Assembly (NCBI GenBank): GCA_041666945.1
Contig: JBAYFY010000001.1
Location: 182,627 to 246,626, forward strand
DNA from: Candidatus Buchananbacteria bacterium
Lineage (GTDB): Bacteria > Patescibacteriota > Patescibacteriia > 2-01-FULL-39-33
DNA length: 64,000 bases
Direction of reading: 5' to 3'
Below the pieces are notes generated by a model. The model was not told where the DNA came from, did not search any database, and worked only from the letters and a program-made list of their open reading frames with translations. Positions 4,894 to 61,187 of the stretch are shown piece after piece. The position numbers and the translations under genes are program-made. Numbering within the stretch: the first letter of the stretch is position 1; the number at the start of each line of letters is the position of its first letter.

Positions 4894-7134
4894 ATGAATC
4901 AAAAGCCGCTTTTGGCGTTGGCATTAAAAGCTGTAATCTGGGCTTGCTTGGGCGTTATTTTTTTCTCCGCCCTGTATGTCAGTTCGTATCTCTTTTTTCC
5001 TTTCATCACCACTAAAAATTTCGCTTTTCAAATCAGCGTAGAAATAATGTTTTTCGCTTTCCTGTTGCTGTGCCTGGTTGACGGTAGATACCGCATCCGG
5101 CTTAATCCCGCCGTGCTTTTGATTCTTCTTTACTTAGTGATTTTAACCGTGGCCTCGGCTTTTTCCGGCAATGATTTTTACCATTCTTTTTGGTCCAACA
5201 ATGAGCGTTGCGACGGCATCCTGCTTTTGTTGCACCTGTCTTTGTTCTGCGTGGTGCTGTCGGGTTTTTTCCGTTCCATTAAAGAATGGCTTTATGTGTT
5301 TGATTTGTTCCTTGTCGCTTCCTTCGCCGTCGCTCTGGTGGCGTTAGACCAATATTTGGCTTTGACTTTCGTCGGTTCCTGGTCGGATCATTTTATGCCG
5401 TCGTCAAACGGCGCGCGTTTGGCCGGCACAATAGGCAACTCCGGCTATGTCGGCGGTTATATGGTGTTTGGAATTTTTACCGCCCTGTTCATGTCTTTAA
5501 AGCGCTCGCAGTGGTGGGCCAAGGCCTGGTATGTCTTAGTGATGCTTTTAGAATTATTTATCGCCGTGCAAACTTTTACTCGCGGCGCTTATCTGGCTTT
5601 ATTGGTCGGAGCGGGCATTTCCGTGCCCTATTTGATGATATTTTATTATCGCAATCGCTACCTGAAAATCGCCGCCGTTTCGCTGATTGTTTTGTTCGTT
5701 TTGTCGTTCGCTTCCATTTTTGTTTTTAAAGATTCTGATTTTGTCAGGCAACAGCCGATTTTAAGCCGCATCTCCTCCATTTCCCTAAAAGACGGCACCG
5801 CCAACAACCGTCTCATCACTTGGGGGCTTGCCTTGCAGGCCGTAGAAGAAAAGCCGTTGTTGGGTTGGGGCCAGGAGAATTTTTATCAGATTTTTGACAA
5901 ATACTACACCACTAAAAACACCGAGCAATGGTTTGACCGTTCGCATAACATGATTTTTGATCGAGCCACTACCGGCGGCATTATCGGCCTGTTGAGTTAT
6001 CTGGCGTTATTGCTCCTGCCTTTTTATTTTATGTGGCGCTATTACTGGGGCGAATATAAAGAGAGGACGGACGACAAAGAGCATTTGGCCAGGCGTTTTC
6101 TTACGCCCGTAATTTTTTCCATTCTAATTCTGGCTTATATCATCCAGAACATGTTTATTTTTGAGGCCCTGGCGATTTATATCCCGCTGATTATGGTTCT
6201 AAGTTTTGTCGGACAGTACGGCCGGGGTTGGAATTTCGCCTTTTTGGACAATTTTAATTTCAAAGCGGGTTTGGCCGTGGTAATGGTTGTTTTATTGGCG
6301 CCCATGCTTTGGATTTTCAATCTTAAGCCGCTTTACGCCAATATAGATTTCATTAAGGCCCTGACTACGCCTTGGCCGACTTTGCAGGACAAAATAAACG
6401 CTTTTGAAGAAGTTATCGGCCGGGGTACTTTTGGCAATCAGGAATATCGCCGGCACTATTTTAATTTTTACGAGCAGACCATAATGGATTATCTCGGCCA
6501 GCAGGAAAATCGTACGGCGGAGAAAGACAAGCAAATGTCCGATTGGTCAAACTTAATGGAAAGCCAATTCCAGGCGCAACTGAAAGAGAACCCTAATAGC
6601 GTTACTAATTGGTTGCTTTTAAACCGTTTTTATAATATTTCCTATTATTTTGACGTGAGACGGCTGCAAAAGGCGACGGATATCGCTGAACAAGCCATCA
6701 GTTTGAGTCCGGGCCGGCCGCAGGGGTATTATGTGGCGGGCATGTCGTATTATTATTTCGGCGCTTATTTTTTAATGAACAAGAATGATGTTGAAGCGGC
6801 AAAATGCTACAAAGAAACCCTGGCATTATTCTGGCGCGGAGCCAATAAGAATGTCAGACCGGGCGAGGGTTTTGACCAGTTCGTTGATTTTATTCTGTCT
6901 TTGCAGAGCAATCCGGCCTCCGCTCCGATTTTCGCCCGACTGTTGGCCGAGGAGCCGATAAATAATTCAACCTCTATAGAGGTGATTAAAGAATTGGCCC
7001 GGTGGTCAAATTTATCCGCCGATCAAGAAATTATGGCGCAAAGGCAGGATAAGCTTAAGAGCATGGCGGCTTGGCTGATAGCTTCCAAGGCGGGCAGTCC
7101 AGAGCTAAGGCAATATTTGGAAACAATCAAGTAA
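4894..7134 (+). CDS. O-antigen ligase/polymerase-like (Wzy_C domain) polytopic membrane protein with C-terminal soluble TPR-like domain
   Basis: About 12 TM helices. Wzy_C-type motif RSHNMIFDRATTGGIIGLLSYLALL. About 250 aa of hydrophilic C-terminus. Confidence 0.65.
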   Translation: MNQKPLLALALKAVIWACLGVIFFSALYVSSYLFFPFITTKNFAFQISVEIMFFAFLLLCLVDGRYRIRLNPAVLLILLYLVILTVASAFSGNDFYHSFWSNNERCDGILLLLHLSLFCVVLSGFFRSIKEWLYVFDLFLVASFAVALVALDQYLALTFVGSWSDHFMPSSNGARLAGTIGNSGYVGGYMVFGIFTALFMSLKRSQWWAKAWYVLVMLLELFIAVQTFTRGAYLALLVGAGISVPYLMIFYYRNRYLKIAAVSLIVLFVLSFASIFVFKDSDFVRQQPILSRISSISLKDGTANNRLITWGLALQAVEEKPLLGWGQENFYQIFDKYYTTKNTEQWFDRSHNMIFDRATTGGIIGLLSYLALLLLPFYFMWRYYWGEYKERTDDKEHLARRFLTPVIFSILILAYIIQNMFIFEALAIYIPLIMVLSFVGQYGRGWNFAFLDNFNFKAGLAVVMVVLLAPMLWIFNLKPLYANIDFIKALTTPWPTLQDKINAFEEVIGRGTFGNQEYRRHYFNFYEQTIMDYLGQQENRTAEKDKQMSDWSNLMESQFQAQLKENPNSVTNWLLLNRFYNISYYFDVRRLQKATDIAEQAISLSPGRPQGYYVAGMSYYYFGAYFLMNKNDVEAAKCYKETLALFWRGANKNVRPGEGFDQFVDFILSLQSNPASAPIFARLLAEEPINNSTSIEVIKELARWSNLSADQEIMAQRQDKLKSMAAWLIASKAGSPELRQYLETIK

Positions 7135-7170
7135 TATAAAAATCCCCGGATAAAATCGGGGATTTTTAGT
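7135..7170. terminator. bidirectional terminator between convergent genes
   Basis: ATAAAAATCCCCGG-ataaaat-CGGGGATTTTTAG. Confidence 0.65.
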
Positions 7171-7188
7171 TAACTGATTTTTTGTTTT

Positions 7189-8340
7189 TTATTTCAAATA
7201 TGTCGCAAAGGTTTTTTCTACCATTTCGCTTAGGCCGAATTCTTTCTTTACCTTAGCCAGTCCCGCTTCGCCGAATTGTTTTCTTATCCGGTCGTCGGCT
7301 AAAAGCTTGATTTTTTCCGCTAACGATTCGGGAGAGCGCGGTTTGGCCAGATAGCCGGTAACGCCGTCGTCAATCATTTCCGGGATGCCGCCGACACGAG
7401 TCGTCACTATCGGCAAGCCGGCGGACATGGCTTCCAATATGAAATAGGGCAGGCCTTCTTTGACCGACGACATGACCGCCAAGTCCAGCGCCTTTAAATA
7501 TCTGGCGGCTTGCGGTTTGCCGCCGGCAAGAATAACGTCATCCTGTAATTCCAATTGTTTGATTTGCCGTTCCAATTCGCCTCTTAATTCTCCCTCGCCG
7601 ATGATTATCAGCTTATAGCTTAGGGCAGACGGCTTGCGGTTCAACAGCTTAATGGCATCAATCAGATAATTTAATCCTTTGGTGGCATAAAAATTAGCAA
7701 TCGTCCCAAGTATAAACTGTTGGCCGTTGATTATTGGCTGGCGGTTGAATAATTCGGCCGAAGCGATTTCTTTATCCCAAAAGTAATCTTCAGGAAAATC
7801 TACGCCATTATGGATAGTAATTAATTTATCGGGTTTGGCGATTTTTTTGTTTATGCCGATTTGCCGATCGTATTCGGAAACGCAGATAATGCGATGTTTG
7901 GTTCCGGCCGTCAGCCGTTCCAGCCAGAGGTACAACGACCGTTTAAGCGGATTCATTGGTTCATTGAAAACCCAGCCGTGAGCCGTGTAAATAAGCTTGC
8001 CCCGGATTGATCTGGGGCAAAACCAGAAGGCGAAAGTACCGACTACGCCCGCTTTGGAGCTGTTTAAATGGATTATGTCCGGTTTAATTTTTCGGTATAA
8101 TTTAGCCAATTCAAAAACAGCCAAAATATCGTTTAGGGGAGAGATGGCTCTTTTTAGGTGCTTTAGAGTCAAAAATTGGCTATTTTTAGCGTTAATTTGT
8201 TGACTAAGCCAATTACCGCTGTTTTCACCGACAGCCACGCTAACGTCCCAATTTTGGCCTGCAGCGGCCCTTGCTAAGGCGCTGATATAAAGTTGGGCGC
8301 CGCCGATTTCGCCCTGGGTTATGACATAAAGGATTTTCAT
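7189..8340 (-). CDS. glycosyltransferase family 4 (GT-B)
   Basis: N-terminal MKILYVITQGEIGGAQLY; EX7E-type motif EGLPYFILEAMSAGLPIVTTRVGGIPEMI. Confidence 0.85.
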   Translation of the reverse strand: MKILYVITQGEIGGAQLYISALARAAAGQNWDVSVAVGENSGNWLSQQINAKNSQFLTLKHLKRAISPLNDILAVFELAKLYRKIKPDIIHLNSSKAGVVGTFAFWFCPRSIRGKLIYTAHGWVFNEPMNPLKRSLYLWLERLTAGTKHRIICVSEYDRQIGINKKIAKPDKLITIHNGVDFPEDYFWDKEIASAELFNRQPIINGQQFILGTIANFYATKGLNYLIDAIKLLNRKPSALSYKLIIIGEGELRGELERQIKQLELQDDVILAGGKPQAARYLKALDLAVMSSVKEGLPYFILEAMSAGLPIVTTRVGGIPEMIDDGVTGYLAKPRSPESLAEKIKLLADDRIRKQFGEAGLAKVKKEFGLSEMVEKTFATYLK

Positions 8341-8359
8341 AATTTAAAACAAATGAAGC

Positions 8360-8389
8360 TTGAAATTTATAATCATTTTCTGCTATAAT
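8360..8389 (+). promoter_or_regulatory. strong sigma70-like promoter heading the long + strand gene array
   Basis: TTGAAA (8360-8365), then an 18-nt spacer, then TATAAT (8384-8389). Confidence 0.5.
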
Positions 8390-8423
8390 ATTAAGGTATT
8401 ATTTGACAATTTACAAGACCGCC

Positions 8424-9266
8424 ATGAATAAATTAATCGGTTTTATCGGCCAGGGCTGGATCGGCAAAAATTATGCCGACGATTTTGAAGTTAGGGGCTA
8501 TCAGGTAATCAGATATTCTTTGGAAGAACCGTATCTCGCCAACAAAGAAAAAATCAGCGAGTGTGATATCGTGTTCATTGCCGTGCCTACCCCGACTACC
8601 CGGACGGGGTTTGATGATTCCATTGTCAGAGGCGCCGTGAAGCTGGTCGGCCAAGGCAAGATCGCGGTAATCAAGTCCACGATTCTGCCCGGCACGACAG
8701 AGTCAATCCAAGCGGAAAATCCAAATATTTATTTGTTCCATTCGCCGGAATTTTTGTCTGTTTCCACCGCTTATGACGATTCGCGCCATCCGCAGAGGAA
8801 TATCGTCGGCCTGCCCATAGACAATGAAACATACAAAACCAAAGCCCGAGAGGTGATGTCGGTGTTGCCCCAGGCGGATTTTTCTCTTATTACTTCGGCC
8901 AAAGAAGCGGAATTATTCAAGTATTTGCGGAACTGCTTTTTTTATACCAAAGTCGTTTACATGAACATGCTTTATGATTTGGCCAAGAAGTTAGGTTGCC
9001 GGTGGGAAGTGCTAAGGGAAATCATGTCCAATGATCCCTGGATTGGCAACATGCATATTGATCCGGTGCATAAAAGCGGCCGGGGCGCCGGCGGAGAATG
9101 CTTTATCAAGGATTTAGCCGCACTTAGGCGTTTCTACAAACAGAATTTGAACGATGAAACGGCGGATTGGGTTTTTTCCGCTTTGGAGAAAAAGAATATT
9201 GAGTTGTTGTTAAAAAGCCAGAAAGATTTGGATTTGCTTAAAGGCGTTTATGGCGAGGATATTTAA
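8424..9266 (+). CDS. UDP-glucose/GDP-mannose dehydrogenase family protein, short form lacking the C-terminal UDP-binding domain
   Basis: N-terminal Rossmann motif IGFIGQGWIGKNYA. Catalytic-Cys motif GAGGECFIKD (UGDH GGxCxxKD). The ORF track starts at a TTG at 8403; the ATG at 8424 (MNKLIGF) is more plausible. Only about 280 aa, versus about 390-450 aa for typical UGDH. Confidence 0.6.
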   Translation: MNKLIGFIGQGWIGKNYADDFEVRGYQVIRYSLEEPYLANKEKISECDIVFIAVPTPTTRTGFDDSIVRGAVKLVGQGKIAVIKSTILPGTTESIQAENPNIYLFHSPEFLSVSTAYDDSRHPQRNIVGLPIDNETYKTKAREVMSVLPQADFSLITSAKEAELFKYLRNCFFYTKVVYMNMLYDLAKKLGCRWEVLREIMSNDPWIGNMHIDPVHKSGRGAGGECFIKDLAALRRFYKQNLNDETADWVFSALEKKNIELLLKSQKDLDLLKGVYGEDI

Positions 9267-9282
9267 GAGATAGTTTGTTATC

Positions 9283-9310
9283 TAACCTGTTACGTAGCAT
9301 GCTACGTAAC
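9283..9310. repeat. perfect 22-bp palindrome GTTACGTAGCATGCTACGTAAC, preceded by CCTGTTACGTA (minimal member of the same GTAACAGG element family)
   Basis: CCTGTTACGTA is the exact reverse complement of the TACGTAACAGG 11-mer found at 62712-62722. Confidence 0.6.
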
Positions 9311-9320
9311 AATTTATCGC

Positions 9321-10547
9321 ATGCCTGCGGAAAACAAAAAAAGAATTCTGATTTTTTCTTTGGCTTACCATCCTTTTGTGGGCGGAGCCGAAGTGGCCAT
9401 TAAAGAAATCACCGAGCGGCTGGGTGAAGATTTTGAATTTGACATGATTACGGCTAACTTGAGCGGCCATGAGCCGAAGGAAATTGAGAATTTTAACGGC
9501 ATCAGCCGGGTTTACCGTTTAGGCGCCGGAAAATTTGACAAGTATCGTTTTCCTTGGCTGGCGTACAACAAAGCGTTGGAGTTGCAGCAGAAAAACGATT
9601 ATGACGCGGTTTGGGCGATGATGGCCAATCAGGCGGGCTTGGCCGCCTTGAAATTCAAGCGTCGTTTTCCGCAGATTCCTTATTTATTGACTTTGCAAGA
9701 AGGGGACAGCGAACTGAATATCTGGCTGCGCACTTGGTTTATCCGGCCGATTTACAAGGCGATTTACCGCCGCGCCGATTATATTCAGGCGATCAGCAAT
9801 TTTTTGGCCAAGCGCGCCAAGCGTTTAGGCGCGAAATGTCCGATTGAAGTGGTGCCGAATGGCGGTGTTATCGAATTAAATTTAGTAGATTTAAAAGATT
9901 ACAGCAAACAAAAAAATAATGCCGAATTTGTTGCTGAATTTGATTCCACTATTGTGAAAGAAATAGAACAGATAAATAAAAATTTGAAAAAAGGTGATAA
10001 TTTAATCATAACTACTTCGCGATTAGTCAAGAAAAACGGAATAGTGTATTTAATACAGGCAATGAAATTTTTACCAAATAACTTTAAGTTAAGAATTATT
10101 GGTGACGGGAAGTTAAAATTAAAATTAAAAAAAACAGTTAAAAAATTAAATTTGAAAGATAGAGTTGAATTTATTGGTCAAATTGATTTTAGAAAATTGT
10201 ATAAATATTATTGGTATAAACCAATAATATTTGTCCGCCCGTCATTGTCGGAAGGATTGGGTAATGTTTTTTTGGAAGCGATGTCAATGAGTATTCCTGT
10301 AATTGGTACTAAAGTTGGTGGCATTCCTGATTTTTTGGTTGACGGCGAAACCGGCTGGTTCTGCAAAGTTAAAAATCCCGAAAGCATCGCGGAAAAAATC
10401 AATTACATTTTGTCTGAAAAAAATAAAGCCGAAGTTGAAAGAGTGGTTGAAAATGCCCAAAAATTAGTAGCCGAAAAGTATAATTGGAATAAAATAGCCG
10501 GCGAGATGAAAAATATTTTCAATAAATTGGCAAATGGACAAGAATAA
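9321..10547 (+). CDS. glycosyltransferase family 4, with an AT-rich mosaic C-terminal domain
   Basis: GT4 C-terminal domain motif EGLGNVFLEAMSMSIPVIGTKVGGIPDFLVDGETG. The segment from about 9860 to 10330 has sharply lower GC than its flanks. Confidence 0.8.
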   Translation: MPAENKKRILIFSLAYHPFVGGAEVAIKEITERLGEDFEFDMITANLSGHEPKEIENFNGISRVYRLGAGKFDKYRFPWLAYNKALELQQKNDYDAVWAMMANQAGLAALKFKRRFPQIPYLLTLQEGDSELNIWLRTWFIRPIYKAIYRRADYIQAISNFLAKRAKRLGAKCPIEVVPNGGVIELNLVDLKDYSKQKNNAEFVAEFDSTIVKEIEQINKNLKKGDNLIITTSRLVKKNGIVYLIQAMKFLPNNFKLRIIGDGKLKLKLKKTVKKLNLKDRVEFIGQIDFRKLYKYYWYKPIIFVRPSLSEGLGNVFLEAMSMSIPVIGTKVGGIPDFLVDGETGWFCKVKNPESIAEKINYILSEKNKAEVERVVENAQKLVAEKYNWNKIAGEMKNIFNKLANGQE

Positions 10548-56448: not shown

Positions 56449-56519
56449 GGGCCTATAGTCTAGTGGTACGACGCTACATTCGCATTGTAGAGGCGGCGGT
56501 TCGATTCCGCCTAGGTCCA
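56449..56519 (+). tRNA. tRNA-Ala (anticodon CGC)
   Basis: Cloverleaf GGGCCTA/TAGGTCC with the G3:U70 Ala identity pair. Anticodon loop TTCGCAT; T-loop TTCGATT. Confidence 0.8.
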
Positions 56520-56570
56520 CTGCTTCGCTAAAGCTACGCAGTGCAGGTATTTTAAAAGATTAATTTAAAT

Positions 56571-56647
<77 letters not shown>

Positions 56648-57398: not shown

Positions 57399-57643
57399 CC
57401 CTCCTGTCATCCTCTTGAATAATCCCCACTGTCATCCTCTTGAATAATCCCCACTGTCATCCTCGCGGAGGCGAGGATCCAAGAGGTTAAAATTATATAA
57501 TAATGGATTCCCGCCTACGCGGGAATGACGGATAAAAAATTGAAACAGCAGGAACAATGCGGAGGCGAGGATCCAAGAGGTTAAAATTATATAATAATGG
57601 ATTCCCGCCTACGCGGGAATGACGGATAAAAAATTGAAACAGT
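57389..57643. repeat. composite repeat cluster: about 2.5 tandem copies of a 25-bp unit, then two identical 84-bp direct repeats separated by 10 bp
   Basis: Two perfect copies of the 25-bp unit CTGTCATCCTCTTGAATAATCCCCA (57404-57428 and 57429-57453); a degenerate half-copy in the ZIP 3' end (57389-57403) and a partial copy at 57454-57464. 84-bp unit GCGGAGGCGAGGATCC...ATTGAAACAG at 57465-57548 and 57559-57642, 100% identical. Internal palindromes ATCCTCGC-gga-GGCGAGGAT and TTCCCGC-ctac-GCGGGAA. Confidence 0.85.
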
Positions 57644-57901
57644 AATACTCGATCGGAATGGCAATAAAAAGGATGCTCAAGCTGGGCATGACTTATAATT
57701 ATTACTATCTGTTTTGTCTATTAAATATAAAAATTATCTAAAATTATATAAAAAGTGATAATCGCTAATTATAAAAATAGATAAATCTATTGACAAAATA
57801 TTTAAGGTATGATATGACATTCACAGCACGTTACATTGGCAGGCCTTAGGCCGGGGACTATTTCTCTGGTAGGAGGTAAGCCGCAATATGGGAGAAAAAC
57901 C

Positions 57902-58600
57902 ATGAAAAAGAGTGAGTTCTTGAGCGCGTTGGGTGTTATGTGGGAAATTTGGAAGTCGCTGACGGATGAAATTTTGTCTTTAGGCGGCGACGATGAGGCG
58001 ATCCGCCTCATTAAGACGGATGACGGTCTGCGGCGGAGAATCGCCGAATTGGTGATGGCTAAAGCGCGTGGCGTCAAGGTTGCCGCCAAGCAAATTGGCG
58101 CTGATATGTCCGCCGGCAGCTACGATGTAATCGTTGACTTTAGCCAGAATCTTGAGCAGATGATCGCCGCCGGTCGCTATAATAGAGCGAGCTCGGACAT
58201 CAACGCCAATAATTTTTCGCTAAACGGAGCGGGTAAACGTAGAGTCAAAGTGGAATTGCTCCACTTTAATCAGAGTTTAGAAAATGGTGACCAAATCTTC
58301 GCCAAACTAAAAGAAGTCAATGATTGGCTGGCGCAACAAGGAGTGAAGTATCGCTACCGTTTTGCCCAAATAGAAGAGCTTCTGGCTCTGGGCGCGACTC
58401 AACCCGAGTTGCAACGGCAACTCCTGATTGCTGCTTTGGGTTCAATTTGGCACCATTATGGCAACCGCGACTTCGTTTGCCTTGGCGGGAATATTATAGA
58501 GCGCCACCTGCTCTTGGGTTCTCTTAAGGGTCGCTTCTCCGGTGACTACTGGCGGTTCGCTGTTGTCCGCGAGGTTTTTGATGACACCTTGAAACCTTGA
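57902..58600 (+). CDS. hypothetical protein, paralog A of a duplicated pair
   Basis: Shares a C-terminal module with 58631..59248 (SDINA..F..NG.GK, ELLALGA.QPELQRQ.LIAALGSIW, YWRFAVVR). The ORF track starts at 57836; MKKSEF at 57902 is more plausible. Confidence 0.45.
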   Translation: MKKSEFLSALGVMWEIWKSLTDEILSLGGDDEAIRLIKTDDGLRRRIAELVMAKARGVKVAAKQIGADMSAGSYDVIVDFSQNLEQMIAAGRYNRASSDINANNFSLNGAGKRRVKVELLHFNQSLENGDQIFAKLKEVNDWLAQQGVKYRYRFAQIEELLALGATQPELQRQLLIAALGSIWHHYGNRDFVCLGGNIIERHLLLGSLKGRFSGDYWRFAVVREVFDDTLKP

Positions 58601-58630
58601 ATCAGAAAAAATCGGGAAAAGGAGAATAGC

Positions 58631-59248
58631 ATGAAAACTGCAAGTAAAACTGGAAATAGAAATAAGAAAGTCGGAACCGGGATTATCACCGCTATTACCG
58701 TCGCAGTTGTAAGCCAAGGCGGAAAAGCCGAGGACTTGACTGCGGTTGTCGGGCACAATGAGTTGCTCAAGCAATTAGCCGCGGCCGTCATTGAGCTTTC
58801 CCGTAAGATCATCCAACTCGTCATTGACTATCGTATGACTTTGGCGCAGATGATCATCGCTGGCAAGTATGACCGGGTGAATTCGGACATCAACGCCGAA
58901 CATTTCCCGATCAATGGGAAGGGCAAGAAGGCGGTCGACATTGAACTCTGGCATCCGAACAGATATTTTAAAAACGGCGACGAAGTGATTGCCGAGCTGA
59001 AAAAGTCCAAATATGGTTATCGTTTCGCCACCCTGCCGGAACTTTTGGCTCTGGGCGCGGCTCAACCCGAGTTGCAACGGCAATTCCTGATTGCCGCTTT
59101 GGGTTCAATTTGGCGCCGCACCGGCTACCGCCGTTTCGCCTACCTCCACGGGTCTGACGCTATGCGCGACCTGGACCTGGGCTTTCTCGGGGGTGCTTTC
59201 CACGGCTATTGGCGCTTTGCGGTTGTCCGCGATCCTGCCTGCCGGTAG
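58631..59248 (+). CDS. hypothetical protein, paralog B of the duplicated pair
   Basis: SD AAGGAGA 7 nt upstream. N-terminal TM. Conserved C-terminal module as in paralog A. Confidence 0.5.
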   Translation: MKTASKTGNRNKKVGTGIITAITVAVVSQGGKAEDLTAVVGHNELLKQLAAAVIELSRKIIQLVIDYRMTLAQMIIAGKYDRVNSDINAEHFPINGKGKKAVDIELWHPNRYFKNGDEVIAELKKSKYGYRFATLPELLALGAAQPELQRQFLIAALGSIWRRTGYRRFAYLHGSDAMRDLDLGFLGGAFHGYWRFAVVRDPACR

Positions 59249-59285
59249 GTAAGTAATTTTGATTAGACATTGACCTCTGAATTTT

Positions 59286-59318
59286 CCGCGCGATAACCCT
59301 TATCGCGCGGCTTTTATT
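59286..59318 (+). terminator. intrinsic terminator
   Basis: CCGCGCGATAA-ccc-TTATCGCGCGG, then CTTTTATTT. Confidence 0.65.
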
Positions 59319-59486
59319 TGATAAAGCTCATAAAAAATTGGCACGGAATTGGAAAGTATGTTATACTGTATATATTGCGGGGTTAATTGCCCGGCCAAAA
59401 TAGATTGGCAGGTATGATACTGGTGAAATTTCAATAAATTTACTTATTAAATCAATTTTTATAAATTTTTATTTAACAGGGTAAAT

Positions 59487-60422
59487 ATGAAAAAAATTAT
59501 TTCTAAAATTTCCGACTGGTGCAAGAATGTTTGCGCCAAGCGCGAGGGGCAAAGCAATTTTAAACGCGGCCTGATAATCGGCCTGATCGTTGCCGTAATC
59601 ATTATTATCATTTTAGTATTGGTTTTATGGCTATCCGGCGTTTGGGACGGCAAAAAAGACGATTCTCAGCCGGCTAATCCCGTCGCCGAAGCCAAAGTAA
59701 TCATTTTGACTTCCACTCATTGCGGCAACAAATGCTGGGATACTGATTTGTTCATAGACGCCCTAAAAAGCAGGAGCATAAAAATCACCGATACGGAAAC
59801 GCTTAAGGTTGACGGTTGGTGGCCTTGGAGTAAAGGCAAGGCCTTGGCTAAAAAACTGCAGGTAACCAAAGTCCCGACGGTCATAGTGGAAGCCGATTTT
59901 AGCAAAAATCCAGATTTGGCGGCTTTTTTCACCAGCACTTTAGGCAACACGGTGGATAACCAGTTTGTCTTAACTAAAATCCTGGCACCCTATTATGATT
60001 TGGCTCTAAAAAAACTTAAGGGCGAAATTTTGATTACTTACTTGACCGACGCTTCATGCAAAACCTGCTATGACGTCAAGACCCATGAAACGGCTTTGAA
60101 GAATTTGGGCATGCCGACCAACCGATCCAAAACCGTGGACATTTCCTCATCTGCCGGCAAGGCCTTGATTGATAAGTATAAGATCACTAAAGCCCCGACA
60201 GTCATAATTAGCGGCGAAGTCAGCGAGTACCCGGTGTTTATTCAGGCCTGGGTTGACGTGGGAACTGTTACCGGCGATGGCGTTTATATTTTTACCAATC
60301 TGGATTTGATGGGTGATTATAAGGATTTGACTACCGGCCAAGAGGTGAAAGCGGACGCCGCCAAGGCCTCCGGTTCGCAGACAACGCAAACCACGGCAGC
60401 CGCCAAAACAACAACCAAATAA
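59487..60422 (+). CDS. membrane-anchored protein with two tandem thioredoxin-fold-like domains and Thr/Ala-rich C-terminal tail
   Basis: N-terminal signal anchor. Domain 1 has CGNKC ... TKVPTVIV; domain 2 has CKTC ... TKAPTVII (CxxC-type motif plus cis-Pro loop). Tail QTTQTTAAAKTTTK. Confidence 0.5.
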   Translation: MKKIISKISDWCKNVCAKREGQSNFKRGLIIGLIVAVIIIIILVLVLWLSGVWDGKKDDSQPANPVAEAKVIILTSTHCGNKCWDTDLFIDALKSRSIKITDTETLKVDGWWPWSKGKALAKKLQVTKVPTVIVEADFSKNPDLAAFFTSTLGNTVDNQFVLTKILAPYYDLALKKLKGEILITYLTDASCKTCYDVKTHETALKNLGMPTNRSKTVDISSSAGKALIDKYKITKAPTVIISGEVSEYPVFIQAWVDVGTVTGDGVYIFTNLDLMGDYKDLTTGQEVKADAAKASGSQTTQTTAAAKTTTK

Positions 60423-60434
60423 TTTGTAAAAGCT

Positions 60435-60465
60435 TCAACCTCGCTAAAGCGAGGTTGATTTTTTT
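60435..60465 (+). terminator. intrinsic terminator
   Basis: TCAACCTCGC-taaa-GCGAGGTTGA, then TTTTTTT. Confidence 0.75.
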
Positions 60466-60497
60466 CGGTTAAAATGTTATATTTTAATCATCCGATT

Positions 60498-61187
60498 ATG
60501 AAGTTATACATCGTGGCTACGCCGCTGGGCAATCTAAAAGATATCACTTTGCGGGCGTTGGAAGTCCTAAGATCAGCGCCTTTAATCGCCTGCGAAGACA
60601 CCCGCGTTTCCGGCAAATTGTTAGCGGCTTACAATATTAAAACCCCGACCGTTTCTTATCACCAGCACAGTTCTTCGGGCAAGGTGGATTTTTTGTTGAA
60701 TAAACTGGCTGAAGCGGGGGAGATGGCAATTATCACCGATGCCGGCACGCCGGGCATTTCCGATCCCGGGAATTTGTTAGTGGAAGCGGCGGTTAAAAAG
60801 TTTGGCTTAAAGTGCGAAATTATACCCATTCCCGGGCCTTCAGCCATTATCGCGCTGCTATCAATTTCCGGCTTGCCGACCGACCGATTTTTGTTTTTGG
60901 GTTTTTTGCCTCATAAAAAAGGCAAAGAAACCATGCTGAAACGAATTATAGACAGCGAAGAAACCGTTGTTTTTTACGAGTCCACCCATCGGATTATCAA
61001 GTCCCTGGAAAAGTTAGGGGAGTTGATGTCTTTGGGGGCGAATAATGACAGACGAATCGTGGTCGGCCGCGAGCTGACGAAAAAATTTGAAACCGTCCAT
61101 CGCGGCAATATTAAGCAAATTTTAGAGCAATTAAAATCCGATACCGCTAAGGGTGAATTTGTCGTGGTGGTGGAAGGAAAGAAATAA
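60498..61187 (+). CDS. rsmI: 16S rRNA (cytidine1402-2'-O)-methyltransferase RsmI (tetrapyrrole-methylase fold)
   Basis: MKLYIVATPLGNLKDITLRALEVL...ACEDTR matches the RsmI N-terminus. Start taken at the ATG at 60498. Confidence 0.85.
   Translation: MKLYIVATPLGNLKDITLRALEVLRSAPLIACEDTRVSGKLLAAYNIKTPTVSYHQHSSSGKVDFLLNKLAEAGEMAIITDAGTPGISDPGNLLVEAAVKKFGLKCEIIPIPGPSAIIALLSISGLPTDRFLFLGFLPHKKGKETMLKRIIDSEETVVFYESTHRIIKSLEKLGELMSLGANNDRRIVVGRELTKKFETVHRGNIKQILEQLKSDTAKGEFVVVVEGKK

Follow-up and report, generated by a model that had tools for sequence, protein, structure and literature searches.

A tandem pair of variable-protein genes in Candidatus Buchananbacteria with signs of gene conversion, loss of a local DGR and apparent service by a remote one

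The gene pair and its protein family

The window analyzed here is a 64,000-nucleotide stretch of a Candidatus Buchananbacteria contig (JBAYFY010000001.1). It carries two adjacent genes on the + strand: ORF A (WCT16_01125, 57902..58600), which codes for a protein of 232 aa, and ORF B (WCT16_01130, 58631..59248), which codes for a protein of 205 aa. We assign them to a family of C-type-lectin-like variable proteins, ORF A as an A-type paralog that is apparently a former DGR target and ORF B as a B-type paralog that is a probable remote DGR target. A fourth paralog, WCT16_02665, is present in the same WCT16 bin. The 66 nt before the ATG of ORF A (57836-57901) form an in-frame, TTG-started extension (MAGLRPGTISLVGGKPQYGRKT) that is kept as protein in L004 and P0037. 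This extension may be the longer true N-terminus or a conserved leader.

Neither protein gave a usable match in Pfam, PHROGs, NCBIfam or PADLOC. The Pfam and NCBIfam searches stayed negative at E-values up to 1, including for PF03781, PF07603 and PF00059, and a PDB sequence search with the single sequence and with the family profile returned no match. A word-seeded search found 43 relatives, and all those with a named source came from Patescibacteria or Candidatus Buchananbacteria. The full profile search retrieved 4,591 representatives (50% identity clusters) at E ≤1e-3, with 252 at ≤1e-30; no significant Pfam domain was found in the 10 distant family members that were scanned. The AlphaFold model of ORF B adopts a C-type-lectin-like (CLec) fold, and we count this predicted fold among the established results. 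The A and B proteins presumably function in ligand binding. Some family members, among them P0004, P0045, P0048, P0126 and P0128, have the domain two or three times in tandem; in P0004 the first copy is shorter and ends in CRFAVVREP, after which the full domain follows.

We compared the pair with its relatives at other loci. Separate orthologs of A type and of B type occur in L001 and in L004, with the order and synteny seen in the window, those of ORF A lying at L001 5254-5940 and L004 270-1022 (73-84% nucleotide identity over the N-terminal and core segments). Over these segments, orthologs are 73-84% identical and paralogs only 39-68%. The N-termini of A and B had been described as unrelated; they do align, weakly, at 39-49% nucleotide identity, and they represent two distinct orthologous types.

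A segment of elevated identity

The gene pair is 58% identical over 582 aligned bases, and the best 70-nt window reaches 66/70 (94.3%) at about 58381-58454 versus 59044-59117 (binomial P for the spike about 8e-12). This per-window profile is not one of uniform divergence, and the identity spike noticed in the first-pass annotation is real. Its count of four differences in 70 positions agrees with the best window, but the first copy that it named (58376-58445) differs at 5/70 positions from the sequence at offset 663. The second copy had been misplaced: 48/70 positions differ when 58376-58445 is set against 59038-59107, and the correct partner is 59039-59108. We define block copy A as 58376..58451 on the + strand, encoding ELLALGATQPELQRQLLIAALGSIW, and block copy B as 59039..59114 on the + strand, at an offset of 663 from copy A and with 5 mismatches in 76 nt.

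Identical degenerate amino acids use the same codon in 19/22 cases within the block versus 34/66 elsewhere (Fisher p = 0.005), so the spike exceeds what amino-acid conservation would give. An independent assembly from a different run (L010, SRR6484324) reproduces 58386-60762 with one mismatch, so the region is not an assembly artefact; the L010 contig begins inside the repeat, at 58386. The protein encoded by the block (ELLALGA.QPELQRQ.LIAALGSIW) comprises two scaffold helices and a strand. Most of the invariant or near-invariant columns of the family fall within it (E137, I154, G158, S159, L138, L139, G142, Q149, A156 and L157).

DGR context of the family and loss of a local cassette

A diversity-generating retroelement (DGR) has its template repeat (TR) copied into RNA, and reverse transcription of that RNA introduces errors only opposite adenines; the resulting cDNA is then substituted for the variable region (VR), which lies at the 3' end of the gene being targeted. 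Family members adjoin bAvd and RVT_1 reverse transcriptase (RT) genes in L001, L004, L005 and L008, and the RTs at these loci carry LGNLTSQ and YADD motifs. At each of the four loci, the last ~125 nt of the gene also occur as a third copy that is non-coding. This copy is the TR, and it is rich in AAC/AAT codons. Between cognate TRs and VRs, 12-26 of about 30 adenine sites are mismatched, compared with 0-3 of about 90 other sites; such adenine confinement is the signature expected of a DGR. Because the family genes have bAvd and RT neighbors and a TR copy from which they differ at TR adenines, we identify them as DGR targets. In L001 and L004, the local TR writes both gene copies. The DGR context was absent from the first-pass reading and proved to be the key to the drop in identity 3' of the block.

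Synteny between the L001 locus and the window extends from SIMPL to the TP-methylase and MetRS genes. At 59322..59411 (no strand assigned), L001 colinearity jumps from 6698 to 10062, and two segments, 59332-59380 and 59383-59411, are 92-93% identical to the 3' portion of the LUD-domain gene of L001. Because colinearity jumps here and fragments of the LUD gene remain at the junction, about 3.4 kb has evidently been lost in the window lineage, taking with it the TR, the bAvd, RT and CCG genes and the greater part of the LUD gene. Searches of the 64-kb window by tblastn and blastn found no RT, Avd or TR.

The surroundings had been read as a small variable islet on the strength of adjacent repeats and tRNAs. 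That description suits the lineage-specific indels, namely the deleted DGR cassette and the repeats that stand where the relative has an SfLAP gene. It does not suit the tRNA pair: tRNA-Ala(CGC)/tRNA-Val(CAC) (window 56449-56647) is syntenic in the relative (L001 308-460; L002 431-1915) and so is no island marker. The relative has a serine recombinase gene after tRNA-Val; the window has none, and its Zip gene begins 8 nt past the tRNA. The spacer between Zip and ORF A is filled by repeats (57404-57642) at the place where L001 carries the SfLAP gene. A 25-nt unit occurs there in two tandem copies (57404-57453), followed by exact 84-nt direct repeats at 57465-57548 and 57559-57642, each of which contains the hairpin TTCCCGC-CTAC-GCGGGAA. 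No further copies of the 84-nt or 25-nt repeats were found in the window or in any retrieved locus. The repeats gave a weak, sub-threshold Rfam match to FtrB on the minus strand.

Variable regions of the two genes

We used as diagnostic sites the seven non-adenine sites that separate the L008 TR from the L001/L004 TRs. VR_B (59109..59230, + strand) has the L008 state at 7/7 of these sites. Compared with the L008 TR (L008 6986-7112), it differs at 22/32 adenine sites and 1/90 other sites, the pattern of a DGR target and its template, and the sole non-adenine mismatch lies in the 3' IMH-like segment. VR_B and the VR of L008 itself are equally clean, the latter's mismatches to the L008 TR falling at 24/32 adenine sites and 1/90 others. 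L008 is an intact DGR with bAvd and a 326-aa RT. It encodes WCT16_01655, a gene with the window's locus-tag prefix that is about 105 genes from B and has an accession 104 later than that of B. L008 and B co-occur in SRR6484324, and we place L008 in the same genome by metagenome-bin membership, the sequence match and this co-occurrence in a second sample, not from a closed genome.

VR_A (58446..58570, + strand) gave a different result. It has an L001/L004 TR-type backbone (6/7 diagnostic sites) and differs from its best-matching TR at 15/91 non-adenine sites, 13 of them GC to AT, with a 3-nt insertion in addition. On these numbers, at best 15/91 with an indel, ORF A alone does not show the TR/VR relationship of a DGR target. 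Because of these mismatch patterns in VR_A and VR_B, we interpret A as a fossil and B as rewritten from a remote TR. B appears to be a remote target of the L008 DGR that is served in trans, now or in the recent past, and we infer that the DGR may still act on it. A looks like a fossil of the deleted local DGR, in which VR_A would keep the backbone of the old local TR and drift by ordinary GC-to-AT mutation. Among the observations that count against this explanation is that VR_A has not been rewritten by L008, although VR_B appears to have been.

We also looked for VR variation between samples. A single variant turned up (P0044/L010); its VR_B is identical, and the L008 VR from that sample shows no change either, so these comparisons give no direct sign of ongoing diversification. 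Scanning metagenomes twice with block patterns returned 0 matches; consensus assemblies of this kind cannot show minority variants.

The 3' end of VR_B contains a putative IMH (59210..59233, + strand) that reads TGGCGCTTTGCGGTTGTCCGC and is followed by GAT. We place it by its position and by the point of VR/TR divergence. Its equivalent in A is 58550-58573. The VR copies of this segment read GTTGTCCGCGA(G/T), and the TR copies read GTTGTCCGC(CAG/TAT), ending in ...CCGCCAG or ...CCGCTAT. In L001, a perfect 11-bp hairpin (GCATGCCTGCC-GGTA-GGCAGGCATG) follows both VRs. The counterpart of this hairpin in the window is a residual, decayed 6-bp stem-loop immediately 3' of VR_B (59234..59249, + strand). 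The post-VR hairpin is long in L005, and it is absent after A and after the L004 and L008 targets. Further downstream, a terminator-like hairpin (59286..59319, + strand; CCGCGCGATAA-CCC-TTATCGCGCGG, then a T run) is common to the orthologous loci. Folding of 59225-59320 gave z = -3.6.

The most durable alternative to remote service is that VR_B was last written by a deleted, L008-like local TR, with L008 being, for example, a duplicate of that cassette, and that A and B are both frozen relics. The identity of VR_B in two samples, the degraded hairpin after B and the demonstrable cassette deletion all fit this account, although the hairpin carries less weight because the L004 and L008 targets also lack one. 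The backbones argue against it: A is of L001/L004 type at 6/7 diagnostic sites and B of L008 type at 7/7, and a single local TR cannot have written both. In addition, the mutagenized part of VR_B contains no non-adenine change compared with 15 in VR_A, which speaks for a much more recent rewriting of B. We consider the frozen-relic account unlikely, and we retain B as an apparent remote target of L008.

Two loci of the WC668 genome show the same mix of a remote target and a fossil as the window does. L013 (WC668_00310) has no RT within 5 kb and shows 4/91 non-adenine mismatches to the L001 TR; it is likely a remote target. L017 (WC668_00340) is a fossil with 25-27/91 non-adenine mismatches. 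Elsewhere, the L015 RT was recovered as two tblastn pieces, for which a frameshift or insertion is possible, and L016 contains a TR-like repeat with no RT or Avd within 5 kb.

Two further sequence features recur at the DGR loci. The TR flanks (L001 ~6830-6885 and 7010-7060, with equivalents in L004, L005 and L008) are conserved between genomes. GCGGGTTTAAAGACCCCGAATAAAATACAGCCGGAAGATAC lies upstream, and downstream a CCGTCCTCGC...GGCGGGGATG hairpin precedes a T run; both flanks probably serve as structural elements of the DGR RNA. Short tandem repeats of CCTTGA(A/C)CC lie directly 3' of variable-protein genes in the window (58586-58606), L001, L004 and L008, with six overlapping copies in L004 at 1012-1062 and 1667-1731. 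They may be part of a target-recognition or terminator region.

Evidence for gene conversion in the high-identity block

TR/VR homology begins at TTTGGC, the final 6 nt of the block. The block is thus the invariant scaffold segment lying directly 5' of the VR. Identity drops on its 3' side because the sequence there is adenine-mutagenized VR, and on its 5' side because the paralogs diverged there long ago. A TR that covers the block itself was ruled out: identity between it and the 60 nt that precede the TRs is only 27-28%, and 11 of its adenines are identical in both copies, untouched by adenine mutagenesis.

We examined quartet site patterns for the two window genes and their orthologs. The ratio of sites supporting orthology to sites supporting within-genome grouping was 47:1 (versus L001) and 48:0 (versus L004) in the N-terminal segment and 30:4 and 40:3 in the core, but 1:10 and 1:5 in the 75-nt block. 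The difference between core and block is significant by Fisher test (p = 3e-6 for L001 and 2e-4 for L004). The switch to within-genome grouping occurs at about 58378-58388, which marks the 5' breakpoint, and the orthology signal is back at 58555-58561. Over the block, A and B are 93% identical to each other and only 75-83% identical to their own orthologs. Both carry a derived CTG (Leu) codon at a position that is Pro in all other sequences, and they share derived synonymous states at 5-10 sites that are absent from all orthologs. Discordance is therefore limited to the tract and is accompanied by shared derived states, as in a conversion tract, in a 75-nt block that offers 5-10 informative sites per quartet.

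Because the block groups the window copies while its flanks follow orthology, we favor gene conversion over a functional site at the nucleotide level. The near-identity of the block, synonymous sites included, indicates conversion between the tandem copies, probably after the split from their relatives. The "recent gene conversion" proposed in the first-pass annotation is thus upheld by the flip in quartet patterns. Type-specific sites in the block are too few to give the direction of transfer (A to B or B to A). The tract may have reached into the VR, with later retrohoming overwriting B from TTTGGC onward. Retrohoming into B after conversion, an order of events that we infer, would explain the sharp 3' edge of the block.

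Protein constraint combined with codon preference at synonymous sites could in principle keep the block alike with no conversion at all. The concentration of invariant and near-invariant family columns in the block fits such an account, as does the L004 pair, whose paralogs are only 80% identical there, so that homogenization is not universal. Yet orthologs with the same amino acids differ in 30-50% of block codons, and the window paralogs differ in 3/22. The quartet patterns also flip exactly in the block, and the derived Leu CTG is present in both window copies. These comparisons make the constraint-only account improbable.

The block could also be a nucleotide-level element, either a cis site for 5' cDNA integration or target recognition or an RNA structure. 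Its position against the VR and the near-identical VR-adjacent sequence in three of four genomes are what such an element would predict. However, the block of the L008 target, the third paralog, is only 65-69% identical to those of A and B, yet the L008 TR fits VR_B as well as it fits that target's own VR. The L004 pair has diverged across the block, and both of its members are nevertheless cleanly cognate to their TR (0-1 non-adenine mismatches). Orthologs vary freely at synonymous block sites, the predicted folding of the block is not more stable than that of shuffled sequence (z = -0.9 to -1.1), no Rfam match was found, and the 5' boundary in Bordetella phage is governed by TR/VR homology only (PMC5758913). 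We regard a nucleotide-level element as very improbable, and the "embedded recombination or RNA site" offered earlier as the other reading of the spike falls with it, given the divergent third-paralog block, the free synonymous change and the negative fold and Rfam results. Recent duplication of one gene followed by rapid divergence elsewhere, which the tandem arrangement and common C-terminal module might suggest, is scarcely credible given the A- and B-type orthologs in L001 and L004 (73-84% identity versus 39-68% for paralogs).

Gene conversion thus remains the preferred reading of the block. L001 and L005 likewise show near-identity up against the VR, over 38 and 91 identical nt respectively; L004 does not. 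We entertained the more speculative idea that DGR retrohoming itself drives concerted evolution of the scaffold beside the VR, with a co-target serving to repair nicks, breaks or intermediates of cDNA integration at one VR and so producing tracts that run upstream from the VR. We think this rather improbable. If true, it would account for the VR-abutting near-identity of 63, 38 and 91 nt that three of four genomes show, it would keep co-targets compatible with a shared TR, and it would mean that a target that had lost its own cassette could be "adopted" by another DGR.

Discussion

We propose that A and B are an old tandem paralogous pair of DGR variable proteins with a helical N-terminal part. 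The joint explanation, in which both genes are DGR targets, their block was homogenized by conversion, the local cassette was lost, B is served in trans and A is drifting, is one that we hold as probable with good confidence. The locus would then be a clean natural case of DGR turnover, in which a cassette was lost, a second DGR apparently took over one target in trans and the neighboring gene is decaying. A large protein family that lacks any Pfam model gains a member, and two "hypothetical proteins" become interpretable. The same family is a DGR target in several Patescibacteria genomes.

Much of this biology is already known. Remote targets and paralogs that retain remnant TR/VR homology after cassette loss have been described, as have variable 5' boundaries that are set by TR/VR homology (PMC5758913, PMC7517822). 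CPR bacteria are enriched in DGRs whose targets lack recognizable domains, and surveys that require a VR beside the RT miss remote targets (PMC8144416). DGR targets, remote targets and relics are thus established categories, and the A/B pair belongs to this known kind. What our analysis adds is modest: a readable history of cassette deletion, adoption and decay, a conversion tract beside a VR, and a large family outside Pfam models. The conversion signal beside the VR provides a small, testable lead on how co-targets stay compatible with their template.

The block has the usual features of interlocus gene conversion between tandem paralogs, including a short within-genome tract, orthologous flanks and shared derived synonymous states. 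It is unusual in that the tract abuts a segment rewritten by a retroelement, and its 3' end would be hidden or reset by retrohoming.

Among CLec-fold DGR variable proteins, Mtd from Bordetella phage, TvpA from Treponema denticola, TaqVP from Thermus and archaeal AvpA have the fold modeled here. Unlike these proteins, A and B show no profile similarity to named families, are about 200 aa long with a short helical N-terminal part, and lie in a window from which the retroelement itself is absent. The pair resembles the remote targets and relic paralogs of Treponema, Legionella and cyanobacteria (Wu et al. 2018, PMC5758913; Vallota-Eastman et al. 2020, PMC7517822) in that B lies far from an RT and shows adenine-only TR/VR differences, and in that its neighbor A keeps remnant homology only. 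It differs from those known cases in that its history can be read from synteny, and in that B carries the TR backbone of another DGR and A does not.
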